Positions 965 through 63,346 of a stretch of DNA of 64,000 bases are shown piece after piece (position 1 is the first letter of the stretch; each line of letters opens with the position of its first letter). The translations under genes and the position numbers were made by a program. The stretch lies in assembly GCF_058153355.1 (NCBI RefSeq), contig NZ_CM177019.1; one strand, written 5' to 3'. The notes under the pieces were generated by a model. That model was not told the origin of the DNA. It did no database searches and was given only the letters and a program-made list of their open reading frames with translations.

Positions 965-1378
965 TTAGTTGATTTCGATACGGCGCGGTTTTTTCGCTTC
1001 CGGAATCACACGTTCGAGATCGATATACAGCAAACCATTTACCAGGTTAGCACCACGAACATGAATGTTCTCAGCTAACTGGAATTTGCGTTCAAAGTTG
1101 CGTTCAGCGATGCCCTGGTACAGATAGGTGCGTTCTTTTTGTTCGTCGGCATGAGCACCTTTCACCACCAACAGATTATCCTGGGCGGTAATTTCCAGTT
1201 CGCTCTCAGCAAAACCAGCCACAGCGATAGCAATGCGGTAATGGTTTTCGTCTACCAGTTCAACGTTATACGGAGGGTAGCCGCCATTACTCTGGCTCTG
1301 GTTGTTTTCTAAGTGGTTAAACAAACGGTCAAATCCAATAGCAGAACGGTAAAGCGGGGATAAATCAAAGTTACGCAT
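965..1378 (-). CDS. ibpA: small heat shock protein IbpA
   Basis: 137 aa ORF, alpha-crystallin-type sHSP paralogous to the adjacent ibpB; length matches IbpA. Confidence 0.92.
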
Positions 1379-1480
1379 AATAAATAGCTCCTGAAATCAG
1401 CGAGAATGTAAGACCTTCCACAATGGACAGGTCAGGTAGCCAGAACACCCATCAGGCGCGTCCTCATCGGCTACGATGTA

Positions 1481-1509
1481 AAAATGGGTCTGGAAATGCA
1501 CTTTTCAAG
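1481..1509 (-). promoter_or_regulatory. sigma32 (heat shock) promoter upstream of ibpA
   Basis: Minus strand reads CTTGAAA, 14 nt spacer, CCCATTTT, matching the sigma32 -35/-10 consensus, about 100 nt upstream of the ibpA start. Confidence 0.55.
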
Positions 1510-1683
1510 CCTTATCAGCGGACTTTTTTTTGCAGTTTATGGTCTATTGCATAGACTGAGGGGGCAGCACGAAACGTTAAAGTGCGATAGCCGCCACAGT
1601 GCGACGTAATGATGATGTTATTTTCAGCAAGGGATCGCTATAACTCATCAGGCCAACACCCACGATCAACAGATGAATTTATT

Positions 1684-2016
1684 ATGATAAGAAATGTGTT
1701 GTTAGCGTTCATGATATGCAGCGGAATGACATTACTCGGAGGATGCTCCAGCGTGATGTCCCATACCGGGGGAAAAGAAGGAACGTATCCCGGCACCCGC
1801 GCCAGCGCCACCATGATTGGCGACGATGAAACCAACTGGGGCACTAAGTCGCTGGCGATTCTCGATATGCCGTTTACCGCTGTGATGGACACGCTTTTAC
1901 TGCCGTGGGATGTGTTCCGCAAAGACAGCTCGGTGCGCTCACGCGTTGAAAAAAGCGAAGCCAACGCGCAAGCCACCAATGCGGTTATTCCACCGGCCAG
2001 AATGCCTGATAACTGA
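1684..2016 (+). CDS. yidQ: small lipoprotein YidQ
   Basis: Internal ATG of track ORF 1609..2016 gives a 110 aa protein with a lipobox (LLGGC); position between ibpA and yidR as in K-12. Confidence 0.8.
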   Translation: MIRNVLLAFMICSGMTLLGGCSSVMSHTGGKEGTYPGTRASATMIGDDETNWGTKSLAILDMPFTAVMDTLLLPWDVFRKDSSVRSRVEKSEANAQATNAVIPPARMPDN

Positions 2017-2017
2017 T

Positions 2018-3268
2018 TTAGCGATCAGTTTCGGTGATCCACAGCTGGCCGCCTTCCATCCACGCTAGCCATCGACCATCCGGCGAGAAGACCACGGCGT
2101 CCGCAGAAGGGGGATTGGCGTGGTTTTCGGTTAAATACTCAACCTCGCCGCTTTGCGCATGGGCGCAAGCAATTCGATTATCCAGCACAAAGCCCAACCA
2201 TTCTCCTGACGGATGCCAGTTAAATGCAGACTGAATATCCGTTTTGTTATGGGTTAACTGGCGCGGCTCGCCGCCCTGTGGCGAGATAAGCCACAGTTGC
2301 ACAATGCCGTTATCATCACGCATTAAAAACGCGATTTGCGTACCCTGCGGATTACAGCGCACCCAGTGGCGCGGGACGTTGACTAACCCCGGATAAGCCC
2401 GATGGTGGGTAAAGGTTAAACGTCGCTGCACGACGCCACGCGGTGGCGCGGGCAGGGTTGTTTCCGTTCCACTTAACGGCGCATCACCTGCTGCTTTCCA
2501 GCCAGCTTCATCTTGCGGTAACTCAACGATGAACAGCTCCGGCACTTTCTCGCCCTTTGGCGAAAGTGTGTCGCCAATAAACGCCAGCGCGTGGTTTCCT
2601 ACCCATCCTTCTTCATAAGCACGATTAATTTCATCACTGCCAGGCTGCGGCGTGGGCGTTGTTTTACTTACCAGTACGCACCAGTGGCTACCGCTGTATT
2701 CACGCGGATGCTGCTTTTGTACGTTGACCGGGCCAAACGGTACCGCAACACTGACGTTGCGCAAATCCAGCGCCGGATCGCGTTCATGCATCACATGGTC
2801 GTTATAGGTAAAGCTCACCATTACACCGTTCGGGCTAAAGACATGTACATGGCTGCCGCCACGCAGCGCCCCTGGCGTATACGGCGCGGTAATATCCATT
2901 GCATCAAGGTTGCTCATCTTGCCGTCTTCAACAATCACGCCTCGACGGTGATGGAAATCGTAATGCCATGTTTCATCAGGATTTTCAGGTCCGTGGATAA
3001 AGACATATTTCTCTGACTTCGGATGAACGGTCACCACGCCGACGTGTGCGCCCTGTGACGCACGGTAGATAACCTCGACCTCACCGGTATGAATATTCAC
3101 ACGTTCAATAGTTTCGCCGGTAAACGACGCCCCAGAAGGACGCACGTCAAATACCAGCCACTGGCTGTCGGGCGTCCAGGTATTGGTATTAGTGAGCAGG
3201 TGATTACGGGGAGCAAAGGTTATCTGTTTCATGGCGTGGTCCTGATACAAAACGGTTTCCGCAATCAT
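2018..3268 (-). CDS. yidR: YidR, beta-propeller-like protein of unknown function
   Basis: 416 aa ORF in the conserved position. An internal ATG at 3232 has a better Shine-Dalgarno (AGGA) and may be the true start. Confidence 0.8.
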   Translation of the reverse strand: MIAETVLYQDHAMKQITFAPRNHLLTNTNTWTPDSQWLVFDVRPSGASFTGETIERVNIHTGEVEVIYRASQGAHVGVVTVHPKSEKYVFIHGPENPDETWHYDFHHRRGVIVEDGKMSNLDAMDITAPYTPGALRGGSHVHVFSPNGVMVSFTYNDHVMHERDPALDLRNVSVAVPFGPVNVQKQHPREYSGSHWCVLVSKTTPTPQPGSDEINRAYEEGWVGNHALAFIGDTLSPKGEKVPELFIVELPQDEAGWKAAGDAPLSGTETTLPAPPRGVVQRRLTFTHHRAYPGLVNVPRHWVRCNPQGTQIAFLMRDDNGIVQLWLISPQGGEPRQLTHNKTDIQSAFNWHPSGEWLGFVLDNRIACAHAQSGEVEYLTENHANPPSADAVVFSPDGRWLAWMEGGQLWITETDR

Positions 3269-20794: not shown

Positions 20795-23292
<2,498 letters not shown>

Positions 23293-54971: not shown

Positions 54972-55365
54972 ACGCTGGTTGTTGGCAGGTATTGCATTGT
55001 GCCTTTTAACCGGTATGCGTGACCCTTTTAAACCGCCGGAAGATCTATGCCGGATTAGCGACCTTAGCCAGTGGCGCTATCAGGGGATGGTAGGGCGAGG
55101 CGAGCGCATCATCGGTGTAATAAAAGATGGGCAAAAAAAATGGCGACGGGTGCAGCAAAACGATGTGCTGGAAAACGGCTGGACGATCTTACAGCTAACG
55201 CCAGACGTACTAACGCTGGGAACCGGGACAAACTGCGAACCGCCACACTGGTTGTGGCAACGGCAAGGAGATACAAATGAAGCAATGGATAGCCGCACTA
55301 CTGTTGATGCTGATACCCGGCGTACAGGCGGCAAAGCCGCAAAAAGTGACGCTGATGGTGGATGA
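54961..55365 (+). CDS. hofP: HofP (PilP-like lipoprotein)
   Basis: 134 aa from MRVKRWLLAGIALCLLTGM (lipobox-like). Confidence 0.83.
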   Translation: MRVKRWLLAGIALCLLTGMRDPFKPPEDLCRISDLSQWRYQGMVGRGERIIGVIKDGQKKWRRVQQNDVLENGWTILQLTPDVLTLGTGTNCEPPHWLWQRQGDTNEAMDSRTTVDADTRRTGGKAAKSDADGG

Positions 55366-56515
55366 CGTTCCGGTAGCTCAGGTGTTGCAGGCGCTGGCTG
55401 AACAGGAGAAGTTGAACCTGGTGGTGTCGCCAGACGTCAGCGGTACGGTGTCGTTACATCTAACAGATGTTCCCTGGAAGCAAGCACTACAAACTGTAGT
55501 GAAAAGCGCCGGACTGATAACGCGTCAGGAGGGCAACATTCTCTCGGTGCATTCCGTTGCCTGGCAGAATGACAATATCGCCCGTCAGGAGGCGGAGCAG
55601 GCGCGGGCGCAGGCAAATCTGCCGCTGGAAAATCGCAGTATAACCCTGCAATACGCCGACGCGGGAGAACTGGCGAAAGCGGGGGAGAAGCTACTGAGTG
55701 CCAAAGGGAGTATGACCGTCGATAAACGCACCAATCGCCTTTTGCTGCGAGATAACAAAGCGGCGTTAAGCGCGCTTGAACAGTGGGTAGCGCAAATGGA
55801 TCTGCCGGTCGGGCAGGTTGAGCTGTCGGCGCATATTGTCACCATTAATGAAAAAAGTTTGCGTGAGTTAGGCGTGAAATGGACGTTGGCTGATGCGCAA
55901 CAAGCTGGTGGCGTTGGGCAAGTCACCACGCTTGGCAGCGACCTCTCCGTAGCGACGGCGACAACGCATGTCGGTTTTAACATTGGACGCATTAACGGAC
56001 GTTTACTGGATCTTGAGCTTTCCGCGCTCGAACAAAAACAGCAGCTGGATATTATCGCCAGTCCGCGTCTGCTGGCCTCACATCTTCAGCCTGCCAGCAT
56101 TAAACAGGGGAGTGAAATTCCATATCAGGTTTCCAGCGGGGAAAGTGGCGCGACGTCGGTGGAATTTAAAGAGGCCGTCCTGGGGATGGAAGTTACGCCC
56201 ACGGTGTTACAAAAAGGTCGCATCCGGCTGAAATTACACATCAGCCAGAACGTTCCGGGGCAGGTGCTACAGCAGGCCGATGGCGAAGTGCTGGCGATTG
56301 ATAAGCAGGAGATCGAAACGCAGGTCGAGGTCAAAAGCGGAGAAACGTTGGCGCTGGGTGGCATTTTTACCCGTAAAAATAAATCGGGTCAGGATAGCGT
56401 ACCGTTGCTTGGCGACATTCCCTGGTTCGGGCAATTATTTCGTCATGACGGAAAAGAAGATGAACGACGCGAGTTAGTGGTGTTTATCACGCCACGACTG
56501 GTTTCCAGTGAGTAA
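55277..56515 (+). CDS. hofQ: secretin HofQ (PilQ/ComE-like outer-membrane channel)
   Basis: 412 aa with signal peptide; secretin-family C-terminal domain. Confidence 0.9.
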   Translation: MKQWIAALLLMLIPGVQAAKPQKVTLMVDDVPVAQVLQALAEQEKLNLVVSPDVSGTVSLHLTDVPWKQALQTVVKSAGLITRQEGNILSVHSVAWQNDNIARQEAEQARAQANLPLENRSITLQYADAGELAKAGEKLLSAKGSMTVDKRTNRLLLRDNKAALSALEQWVAQMDLPVGQVELSAHIVTINEKSLRELGVKWTLADAQQAGGVGQVTTLGSDLSVATATTHVGFNIGRINGRLLDLELSALEQKQQLDIIASPRLLASHLQPASIKQGSEIPYQVSSGESGATSVEFKEAVLGMEVTPTVLQKGRIRLKLHISQNVPGQVLQQADGEVLAIDKQEIETQVEVKSGETLALGGIFTRKNKSGQDSVPLLGDIPWFGQLFRHDGKEDERRELVVFITPRLVSSE

Positions 56516-56915
56516 ACAGCCGTAAAAGCGGTAATGTTTTTACGCTGAACGTGTTTCATCTATTTGACGCGCGCAGGTATTTAGCATACAAGGAGTACCG
56601 ATTTGAGAGTTGGTGCTCTTCGCTGCCTGCGTTCCATGATGATGATTTATCATTCAGGCGGCATTTTGCTGTCTTTTTTACGCTAATCTTACCCGGTGAT
56701 TTATCGCCAGAGCGGTGGTAGCAAGGCAGCGCGCTTGCAGCGACCAGATATGCAGAGGGATGGGTGATTTATTCAGTTGCCAAACCCGCTGGAGTATTGA
56801 GATAATTTTCAGTCTGACTCTCGCAATATCTTATGAGGTTTCAGTTCATGTCCTGCGGCGCTCTCTGAGCGAAGCGGGTTTATCATTAACGAATAGTCTT
56901 AGTAGTACCGAAAAA

Positions 56916-57437
56916 ATGGCAGAGAAACGCAATATCTTTCTGGTTGGGCCTATGGGTGCCGGAAAAAGCACTATTGGGCGCCAGTTAGCTCAACAACTCA
57001 ATATGGAATTTTACGATTCCGATCAAGAGATTGAGAAACGAACCGGAGCTGATGTGGGCTGGGTTTTCGATTTAGAAGGCGAAGAAGGCTTCCGCGATCG
57101 CGAAGAAAAGGTCATCAATGAGTTGACCGAGAAACAGGGTATTGTGCTGGCTACTGGCGGCGGCTCTGTGAAATCCCGCGAAACGCGTAACCGTCTTTCC
57201 GCTCGTGGCGTTGTCGTTTATCTTGAAACGACCATCGAAAAGCAACTTGCACGCACGCAGCGTGATAAAAAACGCCCGTTGCTGCACGTTGAAACACCGC
57301 CGCGTGAAGTTCTGGAAGCGTTGGCCAATGAACGCAATCCGCTGTATGAAGAGATTGCCGACGTGACCATTCGTACTGATGATCAAAGCGCTAAAGTGGT
57401 CGCAAACCAGATTATTCACATGCTGGAAAGCAACTAA
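56916..57437 (+). CDS. aroK: shikimate kinase I
   Basis: 173 aa from [22 protein letters not shown] (Walker A); track ORF 56715..57437 is a long upstream extension. Confidence 0.95.
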
Positions 57438-57493
57438 TTCTGGCTTTATATACACTCGTCTGCGGGTACAGTAATTAAGGTGGATGTCGCGTT

Positions 57494-58582
57494 ATGGAGA
57501 GGATTGTCGTTACTCTCGGGGAACGTAGTTACCCAATTACCATCGCATCTGGTTTGTTTAATGAACCAGCTTCATTCTTACCGCTGAAATCGGGCGAGCA
57601 GGTTATGTTGGTCACCAACGAAACCCTAGCTCCTCTGTATCTCGATAAGGTCCGCGGCGTACTTGAACAGGCGGGTGTTAACGTCGATAGCGTTATCCTC
57701 CCTGACGGCGAGCAGTATAAAAGCCTGGCTGTACTCGATACCGTTTTTACGGCGTTGTTACAAAAGCCGCATGGTCGCGATACTACGCTGGTGGCGCTTG
57801 GCGGCGGCGTAGTGGGCGATCTGACCGGCTTCGCGGCGGCGAGTTATCAGCGTGGTGTACGTTTCATTCAAGTCCCGACGACGTTACTGTCGCAGGTCGA
57901 TTCCTCCGTTGGCGGCAAAACTGCGGTCAACCATCCCCTCGGTAAAAACATGATTGGCGCGTTCTACCAGCCAGCTTCAGTGGTAGTGGATCTCGACTGT
58001 CTGAAAACGCTTCCCCCGCGTGAGTTAGCGTCGGGGCTGGCAGAAGTCATCAAATACGGCATTATTCTTGACGGTGCGTTTTTTAACTGGCTGGAAGAGA
58101 ATCTGGATGCGTTGTTGCGTCTGGACGGTCCGGCAATGGCGTACTGTATTCGCCGTTGTTGTGAACTGAAGGCAGAAGTTGTCGCCGCCGACGAGCGCGA
58201 AACCGGGTTACGTGCTTTACTGAATCTGGGACACACCTTTGGTCATGCCATTGAAGCTGAAATGGGGTATGGCAATTGGTTACACGGTGAAGCGGTTGCT
58301 GCGGGTATGGTGATGGCGGCGCGGACGTCGGAACGTCTCGGGCAGTTTAGTTCTGCCGAAACGCAGCGTATTATAACCCTGCTCACGCGGGCTGGGTTAC
58401 CGGTCAATGGGCCGCGCGAAATGTCCGCGCAGGCGTATTTACCGCATATGCTGCGTGACAAGAAAGTCCTTGCGGGAGAGATGCGCTTAATTCTTCCGTT
58501 GGCAATTGGTAAGAGTGAAGTTCGCAGCGGCGTTTCGCACGAGCTTGTTCTTAATGCCATTGCCGATTGTCAATTAGCGTAA
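57494..58582 (+). CDS. aroB: 3-dehydroquinate synthase
   Basis: 362 aa; glycine-rich NAD-binding stretch ([14 protein letters not shown]). Confidence 0.95.
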
Positions 58583-58673
58583 CAACAAGAAAGGTCAGGC
58601 CGCTTATCAAGCGGTCTATTAGCTTCAGGTTAATTGCAACGTGGTAAGCATTAACCTTTTAGTGGGGTGTTAA

Positions 58674-59960
58674 ATGGATGAATTCAAACCAGAAGACGAG
58701 CTGAAACCCGATCCCAGCGATCGTCGTACTGGTCGTTCTCGTCAATCTTCTGAACGTTCTGAGCGTACTGAACGTGGCGAACCGCAGATCAATTTTGATG
58801 ATATTGAACTTGATGACACTGACGATCGCCGTCCGACTCGTGCGCAAAAAGAGCGCAATGAGGAACCGGAAATCGAAGAAGAAATTGACGAATCCGAAGA
58901 TGAAACCGTGGATGAAGAGCGCGTAGAGCGTCGTCCGCGTAAGCGCAAAAAAGCAGCCAGTAAACCCGCTTCTCGTCAGTATATGATGATGGGCGTCGGC
59001 ATTCTGGTTCTCCTGCTGTTGATCATCGGTATCGGTTCTGCGCTAAAAGCCCCCTCGACCTCTTCCAGCGATCAAACCGCGTCTGGCGAGAAGAGTATTG
59101 ATCTTGCTGGCAATGCGACCGATCAGGCGAATGGCGTGCAGCCAGCGCCGGGAACCACGTCTGCGGAAAATACTCAGCAGGATGTTTCTCTGCCGCCGAT
59201 CTCTTCTACGCCGACTCAAGGGCAAACCCCGGCGGCAACGGATGGTCAACAACGTGTTGAAGTGCAGGGTGACCTGAACAATGCGCTGACCCAGCCACAA
59301 AATCAGCAACAGTTGAATAATGTGGCGGTCAATTCCACGTTGCCGACTGAACCCGCGACGGTCGCGCCTGTTCGCAATGGCAATGCATCGCGTGACACGG
59401 CGAAAACGCAAACCGCTGAACGTCCGGCCACTACGCGTCCAGCTCGCCAGCAGGCGGTGATTGAACCGAAAAAACCGCAAGCAACCGTGAAAACGGAACC
59501 GAAGCCGGTAACACAGACGCCGAAGCGTACTGAACCAGCTGCTCCTGTGGCGAGCACGAAGGCACCGGCTGCGACCTCTACGCCAGCACCAAAAGAGACC
59601 GCAACTACGGCTCCAGTACAGACGGCATCCCCGGCGCAAACCACGGCAACAACAGCCGCTGGAGGGAAGACCGCAGGTAATGTTGGTTCGTTGAAATCGG
59701 CACCGTCCAGCCATTACACTCTGCAGCTGAGCAGTTCCTCTAACTACGACAACCTGAACGGTTGGGCGAAGAAAGAGAATCTGAAAAACTACGTTGTCTA
59801 TGAAACGACGCGTAATGGTCAGCCGTGGTATGTCCTGGTTTCTGGCGTGTACGCTTCGAAAGAAGAGGCGAAAAAAGCGGTATCTACATTGCCAGCAGAT
59901 GTCCAGGCCAAAAACCCGTGGGCGAAACCGCTGCGTCAGGTACAGGCCGATCTGAAGTAA
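58674..59960 (+). CDS. damX: cell-division protein DamX
   Basis: 428 aa; acidic N-terminus, TM segment, long Pro/Thr/Ala/Gln-rich linker, C-terminal SPOR-like domain. Confidence 0.9.
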
Positions 59961-60066
59961 TCAAGGTTATCTCCCGCAATGGTTTATCATCGCGGGAGTT
60001 GCCTGAAGCGCTGGATGCTGTCGGAGCTTTCTCCACAGCCGGAGAAGGTGTAATTAGTTAGTCAGC

Positions 60067-60903
60067 ATGAAGAAAAATCGCGCTTTTTTGAAGTGGGCAG
60101 GGGGCAAGTATCCCCTGCTTGATGATATTAAACGGCATTTGCCCAAGGGCGAATGTCTGGTTGAGCCTTTTGTAGGTGCCGGGTCGGTGTTTCTCAACAC
60201 CGACTTTTCTCGTTATATCCTTGCCGATATCAATAGCGACCTGATCAGTCTCTATAACATTGTGAAGATGCGTACTGATGAGTACGTACAGGCCGCACGC
60301 GAGCTGTTTGTTCCCGAAACAAATTGCGCCGAGGTTTACTATCAGTTCCGCGAAGAGTTCAACAAAAGCCAGGATCCGTTCCGTCGGGCGGTACTGTTTT
60401 TATATTTGAACCGCTACGGTTACAACGGCCTGTGTCGTTACAATCTGCGCGGTGAGTTTAACGTGCCGTTTGGCCGCTACAAAAAACCCTATTTCCCGGA
60501 AGCAGAGTTGTATCACTTCGCTGAAAAAGCGCAGAATGCCTTTTTCTATTGTGAGTCTTACGCCGATAGCATGGCGCGCGCAGATGATGCATCCGTCGTC
60601 TATTGCGATCCGCCTTATGCGCCGCTGTCTGCGACCGCCAACTTTACGGCGTATCACACAAACAGTTTTACGCTTGAACAACAAGCGCATCTGGCGGAGA
60701 TCGCCGAAGGTCTGGTTGAGCGCCATATTCCAGTGCTGATCTCCAATCACGATACGATGTTAACGCGTGAGTGGTATCAGCGCGCAAAATTGCATGTCGT
60801 CAAAGTTCGACGCAGTATAAGCAGCAACGGCGGCACACGTAAAAAGGTGGACGAACTGCTGGCTTTGTACAAACCAGGAGTCGTTTCACCCGCGAAAAAA
60901 TAA
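60067..60903 (+). CDS. dam: DNA adenine methyltransferase (GATC)
   Basis: 278 aa; DPPY catalytic motif ([11 protein letters not shown]). Confidence 0.95.
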
Positions 60904-60920
60904 TTCTCAAGGAGAAGCGG

Positions 60921-61598
60921 ATGAAACAGTATTTGATTGCCCCCTCAATTCTGTCGGCTGATTTTGCCCGCCTGGGTGAAGATACCGCAAAAGCCCTGGC
61001 AGCTGGCGCTGATGTCGTGCATTTTGACGTCATGGATAACCACTATGTTCCCAATCTGACGATTGGGCCGATGGTGCTGAAATCTCTGCGTAATTATGGC
61101 ATTACTGCCCCTATTGATGTGCATCTGATGGTGAAACCGGTCGATCGCATTGTGCCAGATTTCGCTGCCGCTGGTGCCAGCATCATAACCTTTCATCCAG
61201 AAGCCTCCGAGCATGTTGACCGCACGCTGCAACTGATTAAAGAAAATGGCTGTAAAGCGGGGCTGGTATTTAACCCGGCGACACCGCTGAGCTATCTGGA
61301 TTACGTGATGGATAAGCTGGATGTGATCCTGCTGATGTCCGTCAACCCTGGTTTCGGCGGTCAGTCTTTCATTCCTCAAACACTGGATAAACTGCGCGAA
61401 GTACGTCGTCGTATCGACGAGTCTGGCTTCGACATTCGACTGGAAGTGGACGGCGGCGTGAAGGTGAACAACATTGGCGAAATCGCTGCGGCAGGTGCCG
61501 ATATGTTCGTCGCTGGTTCGGCCATTTTCGATCAGCCAGACTACAAAAAGGTCATTGATGAAATGCGCAGTGAACTGGCAAAGGTAAGTCATGAATAA
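60921..61598 (+). CDS. rpe: ribulose-phosphate 3-epimerase
   Basis: 225 aa; conserved HFDVMD motif. Confidence 0.95.
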
Positions 61599-62349
61599 GT
61601 TTGAAGATATTCGCGGCGTCGCTTTTGATCTCGATGGTACGCTGGTGGACAGTGCTCCTGGTCTGGCTGCTGCGGTAGATATGGCGCTGTATGCGCTGGA
61701 GTTGCCCGTCGCAGGTGAAGAGCGTGTTATTACCTGGATTGGTAATGGCGCAGATGTTCTGATGGAGCGTGCATTGACCTGGGCGCGTCAGGAACGTGCG
61801 ACTCTGCGTAAAACGATGGGCAAACCGCCTGTTGATGACGATATTCCGGCAGAAGAACAGGTACGTATTCTGCGTAAACTGTTTGATCGCTACTATGGAG
61901 AGGTTGCCGAAGAGGGGACGTTTTTGTTCCCACACGTTGCCGATACGCTGGGCGCATTGCAGGCTAAAGGCCTGCCGCTAGGCCTGGTTACCAACAAACC
62001 GACTCCGTTCGTCGCGCCGCTGCTCGAAGCCTTAGATATCGCCAAATACTTCAGCGTGGTGATTGGTGGTGATGATGTGCAAAACAAAAAACCGCATCCG
62101 GACCCACTGTTACTGGTGGCTGAGCGGATGGGCATTGCCCCACAACAGATGCTGTTTGTTGGCGACTCACGCAATGATATTCAGGCAGCAAAAGCGGCCG
62201 GTTGCCCTTCTGTTGGTTTAACCTATGGATATAACTACGGCGAGGCTATCGATCTTAGCCAGCCTGATGTAATTTATCAGTCTATCAATGACCTTCTGCC
62301 CGCACTAGGGCTTCCGCATAGCGAAAATCAGGAATCGAAAAATGACTAA
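61591..62349 (+). CDS. gph: phosphoglycolate phosphatase
   Basis: 252 aa HAD hydrolase ([10 protein letters not shown] motif I); overlaps the rpe 3' end. Confidence 0.93.
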
Positions 62350-63346
62350 GCCCATCGTTTTTAGTGGCGCACAGCCCTCAGGTGAATTGACCATTGGTAA
62401 CTACATGGGTGCGCTGCGTCAGTGGGTAAACATGCAGGATGACTACCATTGCATTTACTGTATCGTTGACCAACACGCGATCACCGTGCGCCAGGATGCA
62501 CAGAAGCTGCGTAAAGCGACGCTGGATACGCTGGCCTTGTATCTGGCTTGTGGTATCGATCCTGAGAAAAGCACCATTTTTGTTCAGTCCCACGTGCCGG
62601 AACATGCGCAGTTAGGCTGGGCACTGAACTGCTATACCTACTTCGGCGAACTGAGCCGCATGACGCAGTTTAAAGATAAATCTGCGCGTTATGCTGAGAA
62701 TATCAACGCGGGTCTGTTTGACTATCCGGTGCTGATGGCGGCGGATATCCTACTGTATCAAACCAACCTGGTGCCGGTGGGTGAAGACCAGAAACAGCAC
62801 CTGGAACTGAGCCGCGATATCGCCCAGCGTTTCAACGCGCTGTATGGCGATATTTTTAAAGTACCGGAGCCGTTTATTCCGAAATCTGGCGCGCGCGTAA
62901 TGTCGCTGCTGGAGCCGACCAAGAAGATGTCCAAGTCTGACGATAACCGCAATAACGTTATCGGCCTGCTGGAAGACCCGAAATCGGTAGTGAAGAAAAT
63001 CAAACGCGCGGTCACTGACTCCGACGAGCCGCCGGTAGTTCGCTACGATGTGCAGAATAAAGCGGGCGTTTCCAACCTGCTGGATATTCTTTCTGCGGTA
63101 ACTGGCCAGAGTATCCCGGAACTGGAAAAACAGTTCGAAGGCAAGATGTATGGTCATCTGAAAGGCGAAGTGGCTGATGCCGTTTCTGGTATGCTGACTG
63201 AATTGCAGGAACGTTATCACCGTTTCCGCAACGACGAAGCCTTCCTGCAACAGGTCATGAAAGACGGCGCAGAAAAAGCCAGTGCACACGCTTCCCGGAC
63301 GCTGAAAGCGGTTTACGAAGCGATTGGTTTTGTGGCGAAGCCGTAA
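62342..63346 (+). CDS. trpS: tryptophan--tRNA ligase
   Basis: 334 aa class I aminoacyl-tRNA synthetase with KMSKS motif; overlaps the gph 3' end. Confidence 0.95.

Follow-up and report, generated by a model that had tools for sequence, protein, structure and literature searches.

The 59040-59650 interval of the 64,000-nucleotide stretch of E. coli DNA analysed here (the window) encodes residues 123-326 of the cell-division protein DamX, i.e., the periplasmic segment between its membrane helix and its SPOR domain. We regard it as very nearly certain that this region is a disordered tether and that the two long open reading frames (ORFs) on the opposite strand are passive, non-coding by-products of the sense codons. 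DamX is a bitopic protein of the inner membrane that binds septal peptidoglycan through its C-terminal SPOR domain, and residues 125-337 would form a flexible Thr/Ala/Pro/Gln-rich disordered tether between this domain and the transmembrane helix. Sense codons whose reverse complements are stops are missing from the linker, which would leave two long antisense ORFs open passively without making them genes. The feature as a whole, a disordered DamX tether with shadow ORFs, is ordinary and already known.

The gene at 58674..59960 on the plus strand is damX of E. coli. Its product matches the DamX equivalog family NF008153 of NCBIfam with 848.8 bits against a cut-off of 256, and the match spans residues 1-428 of 428; in 5425 of 5426 complete E. 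coli genomes the RefSeq name of the matching gene is cell division protein DamX. The damX stretch is 99.8% identical to that of strain 2013C-4282. The 57494-63346 region contains aroB, damX, dam, rpe, gph and trpS in the E. coli order, and both the window and the RefSeq records show the arrangement aroK-aroB-damX-dam-rpe-gph-trpS with damX between aroB and dam. The order around damX is the same in Salmonella, Citrobacter, E. albertii and E. marmotae. The features discussed below are the following.

58674..59960, plus strand: damX coding sequence, cell-division protein DamX, 428 aa (ORF list, NCBIfam, RefSeq annotation)
58674..58982, plus strand: N-terminal cytoplasmic part, aa 1-103, Glu/Arg/Asp-rich (composition, AlphaFold2)
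58974..59042, plus strand: predicted single transmembrane helix, aa 101-123 (AlphaFold2 helix, hydrophobic sequence, conservation)
59043..59045, plus strand: CTA (Leu124), the stop codon (TAG) of ORF1 on the opposite strand and the sole damX codon to yield a stop in the codon-aligned antisense frame (codon count)
59046..59381, plus strand: N-proximal half of the periplasmic linker, aa 125-236, predicted to be disordered, with conserved short motifs (35-homologue alignment, pLDDT 39-48)
59382..59684, plus strand: C-proximal half of the linker, aa 237-337, a low-complexity Pro/Thr/Ala/Lys spacer, hypervariable between genera (entropy, homologue lengths)
59580..59591, plus strand: ACGCCAGCACCA, the copy that remains of an imperfect 12-bp tandem duplication (codon alignment)
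59685..59957, plus strand: SPOR domain, aa 338-428 (Pfam PF05036, PDB 2LFV, AlphaFold2)
59043..59714, minus strand: antisense ORF 1 (ORF1), 223 aa, ATG start, Arg 26%, codon-aligned frame, judged non-coding (ORF list)
59303..59644, minus strand: antisense ORF 2 (ORF2), 113 aa, GTG start, Val/Ala/Gly-rich, judged non-coding and lineage-specific (ORF list)

The layout of DamX was derived from an alignment of 35 homologues with identities down to 31% and from an AlphaFold2 model built on 35 homologues. Residues 1-103 are rich in Glu (20%), Arg (17%) and Asp (13%), are modelled without secondary structure (pLDDT 41-59) and vary in length between 37 and 103 aa among the homologues. The helix at residues 101-123 is hydrophobic, is kept among homologues and is modelled with a pLDDT of 82-88. 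This one predicted transmembrane helix between the N-terminus and the remainder of the protein fits a bitopic topology, and the assignment of the N-terminus to the cytoplasm and of the remainder to the periplasm is taken from the literature. The SPOR domain was recognized by Pfam (PF05036, aa 345-418, E = 1.9e-14) and by a match of aa 334-428 to PDB 2LFV, the solved SPOR structure deposited as 'Protein damX'. It is modelled as a beta-alpha fold with a pLDDT of 93-96 across residues 337-428, and its length is about 91 aa (87-92) in all DamX homologues.

The sequence-only reading, which quoted peptide strings corresponding to DamX residues about 247-330, described the linker as compositionally biased and probably disordered, and this description holds. 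Thr (17%), Ala (16%), Pro (12%) and Gln (10%) together make up 55% of residues 125-337, compared to 24% in the 33 other proteins of the window (binomial P = 7e-23), in which no 213-aa stretch exceeds 34%. Bulky hydrophobic residues and Cys (FWYLIMC) account for 4% of the linker versus 29% of the other window proteins. The complexity minimum of DamX lies at residues about 261-340, where the entropy over 40 residues is 2.8-3.0 bits; the lowest 40-aa value, 2.79 bits, is found in the spacer half, while the minimum in all other window proteins is 3.10. The disorder prediction that had been proposed as a check was carried out with AlphaFold2, whose confidence serves here as a proxy for disorder: residues 124-336 have a pLDDT of 36-53 and contain no DSSP secondary-structure elements, whereas the transmembrane helix and the SPOR domain are modelled confidently. 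Residues 125-337 are, therefore, a biased and probably disordered linker. Its disordered nature is already known, as the literature describes the DamX linker as mostly unstructured.

The homologue alignment indicates that the linker is two-part rather than uniformly low-complexity, with a motif-bearing half at residues about 139-232 and a hypervariable spacer at about 237-337. Four short motifs are conserved in residues about 139-232 of homologues that are 31-60% identical: EKxIDLS at DamX 139-145, in which L144 is invariant; an 11-residue motif at DamX 172-182; QQRVEVxGDLNNAL at DamX 192-205; and STLPTxPATV at DamX 221-230, in which conservation of L223, P224, P227 and A228 reaches 90% or more. 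Within residues 237-337, P291 is the only conserved column, and the mean column conservation is 0.22-0.32. In the DamX frame, dN/dS over the linker is 0.04-0.13, and thus the linker is under purifying selection.

The linker was also proposed to vary in length from strain to strain, and the comparison across strains does not bear this out. In 59 of 60 genomes, picked at regular intervals along a ranking of 5425, the alignment to a linker query is exactly 611 bases long, and the whole damX gene has 1287 bases in 29 of 30 sampled E. coli genomes, so that the length is essentially fixed within the species. The one recurrent variant, present in 40 of 5426 genomes (0.7%), strain HS among them, carries 12 additional bp, ACGCCAGCCGCA, inserted after 59579, and encodes a 432-aa protein; according to the codon alignment, this allele is an imperfect tandem duplication, ACGCCAGCCGCA/ACGCCAGCACCA. 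Since E. albertii and E. marmotae carry the same longer form, this form is probably ancestral and the common 428-aa allele the product of a 12-bp deletion. Other E. coli DamX lengths (389-433 aa) are rare and are mostly singleton sequences; most of the rare length variants of E. coli and E. albertii map to residues 237-337, with several indels at about 288-327. Across genera, the variable half is 50-138 aa and DamX as a whole 326-475 aa long. The term "genus-variable" is thus supported for the linker length and "strain-variable" is not. These data also bear on the possibility that the linker behaves like a contingency locus, differing in length from one E. coli strain to another and thereby tuning the function of DamX. 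The rare variants with indels mostly in the linker, the 12-bp imperfect tandem duplication and the wide variation between genera would agree with such a locus. However, the near-constant length in the sampled genomes, the rarity of the 12-bp-longer allele and the singleton character of the other variants argue against it. In addition, a search of the linker DNA for repeats returned no tandem repeat and direct repeats at chance level only, which means that there is no slippage-prone tract. We consider a contingency-like locus highly unlikely.

Both antisense ORFs lie exactly where the sequence-only reading had placed them. It had called them Arg/Cys-rich, which needs a correction: of the two, only the 223-aa product of ORF1 is Arg-rich, and the 113-aa product of ORF2 is rich in Val, Ala and Gly and contains 7% Cys. 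The frame of ORF1 is codon-aligned with damX, and stops can arise in it only from sense TTA, CTA or TCA codons. The entire damX coding sequence contains one such codon, the CTA of Leu124 that ends ORF1. The open run of this frame is 305 codons long and continues through the SPOR domain as far as the damX stop; the 5' end of ORF1 is set by the first available start codon (the antisense of the His347 codon CAT) and not by a stop. The linker alone does not, therefore, account for the open antisense frame. The earlier explanation that codon bias of the linker opens these frames is correct insofar as codon choice contributes, but the Leu-poor composition contributes too, and the run exceeds the linker. 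Leu makes up 3% of codons 125-347 versus 11% elsewhere, and the linker itself is without Tyr or His and almost without Leu. Among the 35 Ser codons of damX there is no TCA and there are 16 TCT, and 14 of its 23 Leu codons are CTG. Having few Leu, no Tyr or His and avoiding TCA, the linker lacks the codons that read as antisense stops, and long antisense ORFs would be left open passively.

How unusual this is was assessed with a null model in which the protein is kept and synonymous codons are redrawn from the usage of the window. From the Leu and Ser counts, 7.3 stop-generating codons are expected in damX and one is observed (P = 0.004). The longest codon-aligned antisense run in the null model is 163 +/- 54 codons, compared to the observed 305 (P = 0.025). 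Both values are modestly unusual for one gene among 46. However, antisense open runs of at least 200 codons are found opposite 8 of the 46 long ORFs of the window, and the run opposite rpe covers 217 of its 225 codons (96% of the gene). The frame of ORF2, which shares its third codon positions with damX, is unremarkable under codon resampling (P = 0.34).

Pervasive antisense transcription in E. coli is established, and against this background the minus strand of the linker might give rise to a regulatory, non-coding antisense RNA acting on damX or dam, the ORFs being incidental. Nothing specific to this locus that would favour such an RNA was found. A simple consensus scan of the minus strand between 59000 and 60200 found no sigma-70-like site upstream of either ORF start, and the only minus-strand promoter-like site, at 58825-58798, lies downstream of both ORFs. 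No Rfam family matched either strand of 57000-61500 at E <= 1. The synonymous sites of the linker evolve as fast as those of neighbouring genes: at the four-fold sites under ORF1, the linker diverges at the same pace as aroB and dam. A regulatory antisense RNA is, therefore, highly improbable here. A minor-sigma SELEX peak near damX (PMC5493296) was considered and set aside, as it is listed within aroB, between aroK and damX, and has no antisense context. NG86 dS in the linker exceeds that of the flanking segments by a factor of 2-3, which had suggested a mutation hot spot. The four-fold comparison speaks against one: the linker is on a par with aroB and dam, and the low values are those of the N-terminal and SPOR segments. 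As a separate observation, divergence along the damX operon is mosaic, dS being 0.011 in dam and 0.18 in rpe-trpS.

A different possibility is that ORF1 is a young, Escherichia-restricted antisense overlapping protein-coding gene that is translated at a low level. Verified antisense overlapping genes are described for E. coli O157:H7 (PMC9927249), and ORF1 is intact with its ATG start in the window, in seven other E. coli strains spanning the identity range (8/8) and in E. marmotae. The deficit of antisense-stop codons and the 305-codon run might be counted in its favour as well. However, a stop in ORF1 would result from only 3% of the possible point mutations, and the strains differ at about 20 sites; with 1-4% divergence, intactness within E. 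coli is expected and carries no weight. Beyond E. coli and E. marmotae, stops shorten ORF1 to 80-146 aa; this holds for E. albertii (interrupted at sense codon 214), for S. enterica and S. bongori, for C. amalonaticus and for a relative of 83% identity (P0023). These relatives have from 1 to 10 stops in that frame, which is about what codon usage predicts. Over the 223 codons of ORF1, dN/dS in the antisense frame is 1.8-6.9 within E. coli and 0.9-1.4 between species, compared to 0.04-0.13 in the DamX frame of the same codons. A protein encoded by ORF1 would constrain the third positions of damX, and the free divergence of the four-fold sites thus counts against coding. An Arg content of 26% is typical of the complement of Ala/Thr/Pro codons, and neither antisense ORF product matches a family in Pfam or NCBIfam. 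As for ORF2, it is only 65-69 aa long in six other E. coli genomes and is open only in this lineage. Its apparent purifying selection (dN/dS 0.02-0.18) is uninformative, because the wobble positions are shared with damX.

Signals and records of expression point in the same direction. The starts are preceded by 21-25 nt that read ACTGCTCAGCTGCAGAGTGTA-ATG for ORF1 and CTTCCCTCCAGCGGCTGTTGTTGCC-GTG for ORF2, and a simple consensus reading shows no AGGAGG-like or Shine-Dalgarno element in either; the promoter scan described above likewise gave neither ORF a promoter-like site. The exact ORF1 and ORF2 sequences are absent from a collection of 15 billion proteins. A homology search of 5.8 billion protein clusters returned 14 sporadic relatives of ORF1, mostly fragments on short contigs, one labelled 'hypothetical protein' and the rest unnamed, while the cluster of DamX itself has 6081 member sequences. 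The sole full-length ORF1-like call comes from a metagenome scaffold in which the damX-strand ORF is 403 aa and no damX gene was called. Gene finders, thus, essentially never call ORF1, and the 8 RefSeq records inspected have no minus-strand annotation within damX. The one publication found to connect damX with unannotated coding is that on PIRT-Seq, a genome-wide though not saturating translation-reporter screen in E. coli K-12 (PMC12350097); its table of 215 candidate CDSs has no damX entry. The same work does name, and followed up, a nested gene "within damX", but its tagging primer IN-damX_DW.F maps to 58874-58923 on the plus strand, and the candidate is a sense-strand ORF in the +1 frame at 58774..58926, in the N-terminal domain, i.e., neither antisense nor in the linker. 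A literature search on damX with antisense, ribosome profiling or overlapping genes found nothing on the minus strand.

Apart from a mild excess of stop avoidance, every test thus contradicts the view of ORF1 as a young gene, and we give it hardly any credence. Its variant, in which ORF1 is a de novo antisense gene of E. coli and its closest relatives, weakly or conditionally translated, and the lack of TTA, CTA and TCA codons reflects selection for openness, is equally unlikely. The stop depletion spans the whole of damX and does not track ORF1. We return to the reading of both ORFs as passive by-products of the sense codons of a disordered tether. The earlier recommendation that they should not be annotated stands, given that ORF1 is broken in relatives, has an antisense dN/dS of 0.9-6.9 and lacks expression signals; we infer from sequence, rather than from measurement, that neither ORF is translated in cells. 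The finding has little significance beyond annotation hygiene: the two minus-strand ORFs in damX should stay unannotated. The gene may also serve as a worked example of how a codon-aligned antisense frame stays open in a Leu-poor, codon-biased gene.

Shadow ORFs, i.e., long open frames opposite real genes, chiefly in the codon-aligned frame, are a long-recognised annotation artefact. Like ORF1 of damX, they receive stops only from rare sense TTA, CTA and TCA codons; unlike in ordinary shadow ORFs, the effect in damX is reinforced, beyond codon preference, by amino-acid composition (Leu 3%). The antisense overlapping genes of E. coli O157:H7 (PMC9927249) share with ORF1 that they are long, fully embedded in antisense orientation in an annotated gene and restricted to Escherichia. 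The O157:H7 candidates are described as having signal in both RNA-seq and Ribo-seq, together with the structural elements that expression needs; by comparison, the damX ORFs have no promoter-like site, Shine-Dalgarno sequence, purifying selection or reported translation.

DamX of E. coli K-12, which is known to localise to the septum, to bind denuded glycan and to stimulate PBP1B (PMC7642682), is the same gene, with 428 aa, a like domain order and a like operon context. The DNA of the K-12 gene is 98.2% identical to that of the window over the whole gene (23 differences) and 97.2% identical over the linker. Twenty-two of the 23 nucleotide differences fall within codons 130-331, and six change amino acids; for example, the DamX described here has T280 and T327 where most E. 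coli have A and P. The differences of this lineage from K-12 happen to remove two stops, and this is why the 113-aa antisense ORF is open only here. The inner-membrane SPOR proteins FtsN and DedD have disordered periplasmic linkers, as DamX does; the linker of DedD was found to be unstructured by NMR, and that of DamX is the largest periplasmic linker among inner-membrane SPOR proteins (PMC7642682). DamX differs from FtsN and DedD in having the longest linker and in the four conserved short motifs of its N-proximal half. The two-part organization of this linker, as well as its length, near-fixed in E. coli and free between genera, may be of interest to researchers of cell division.

The sequence divergence of damX (58674..59960, plus strand), compared together with its flanks over 55277..63346, is distributed unevenly along the gene. 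Relative to K-12, 22 of the 23 differences fall within codons 130-331, which largely correspond to the linker, and none is found in codons 1-103 or 338-428. At four-fold degenerate sites the comparison with E. marmotae gives 7% differing positions in the N-terminal part and 11% in the part coding for the SPOR domain, against 23-32% in the linker and 19% and 28% in the neighbouring aroB and dam, respectively. The divergence of the operon is itself a mosaic: dam has a dS of 0.011, compared with 0.18 for rpe, gph and trpS. The uneven synonymous divergence may reflect the history of recombination or, alternatively, an added constraint acting on both ends of damX.

Length variation by repeat-mediated indels has a single site in damX, and this site lies outside the linker:

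58748..58775, plus strand, 9-bp repeat in 3.1 copies (unit TTCTGAACG)

The repeat codes for SERSERTER within the N-terminal domain of DamX. One SER unit is missing exactly at this place from P0128, an E. coli DamX variant of 425 aa, and the DamX proteins of Salmonella and Citrobacter are 5-6 residues shorter at the same site.

Alignment of homologues revealed conserved elements within the linker, which is otherwise supposed to be unstructured:

59088..59363, plus strand, four short conserved motifs (DamX residues 139-230)

These motifs, which include EKxIDLS, QQRVEVxGDLNNAL and STLPTxPATV, are kept in homologues down to 31% identity. No structure was predicted for the four of them (residues 139-230) by AlphaFold2, and no description of them was found in the literature consulted; they may be docking sites for partners of DamX.

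The region coding for the N-terminal cytoplasmic domain also contains a reading frame on the sense strand:

58774..58926, plus strand, nested ORF of 50 aa with a GTG start, in the +1 frame of damX

Its product has a hydrophobic stretch. Since the tagging primer IN-damX_DW.F of PIRT-Seq, a translation-reporter screen in E. coli K-12, ends at 58923, this ORF is the nested candidate named 'in-damX' in that work, where it was detected in one replicate only and the text gives no western-blot outcome for it (PMC12350097). Most Escherichia, as well as Citrobacter, keep this frame open; in GF4-3 its sixth codon is a stop, and in Salmonella it is destroyed by indels.

The 223-aa ORF antisense to damX, judged to be non-coding, is of the same kind as two further shadow ORFs:

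60945..61592, minus strand, 215-aa shadow ORF antisense to rpe, covering 96% of that gene
opposite the 797-aa gene 20899..23292, antisense, open run of 326 codons

How such an artefact enters databases is exemplified by L015, an ENA metagenome scaffold on which the real gene is truncated or mis-assembled and the gene caller called the antisense ORF, leaving damX uncalled (scaffold coordinates):

1330..2541, minus strand, damX-strand ORF of 403 aa instead of the usual 428
1501..2172, plus strand, antisense 223-aa ORF, called

Two further sequence features are located around the damX-dam junction:

59971..59998, plus strand, GC-rich hairpin (CUCCCGC ... GCGGGAG, with additional pairs in the loop)
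59691..59720, plus strand, sigma-70-like site (TTGAAA, 18-nt spacer, TACACT; 9/12 matches)

The hairpin begins 11 nt past the damX stop codon, and the region 59955-60015 has a folding energy of -22.6 kcal/mol (z = -2.9 relative to shuffled sequences). Since no U-run follows it, the hairpin does not qualify as an intrinsic terminator of the canonical type. The sigma-70-like site falls in the stretch of damX that encodes the SPOR domain, and dam starts about 350 nt further downstream. Promoters of dam internal to damX are described in the older literature.
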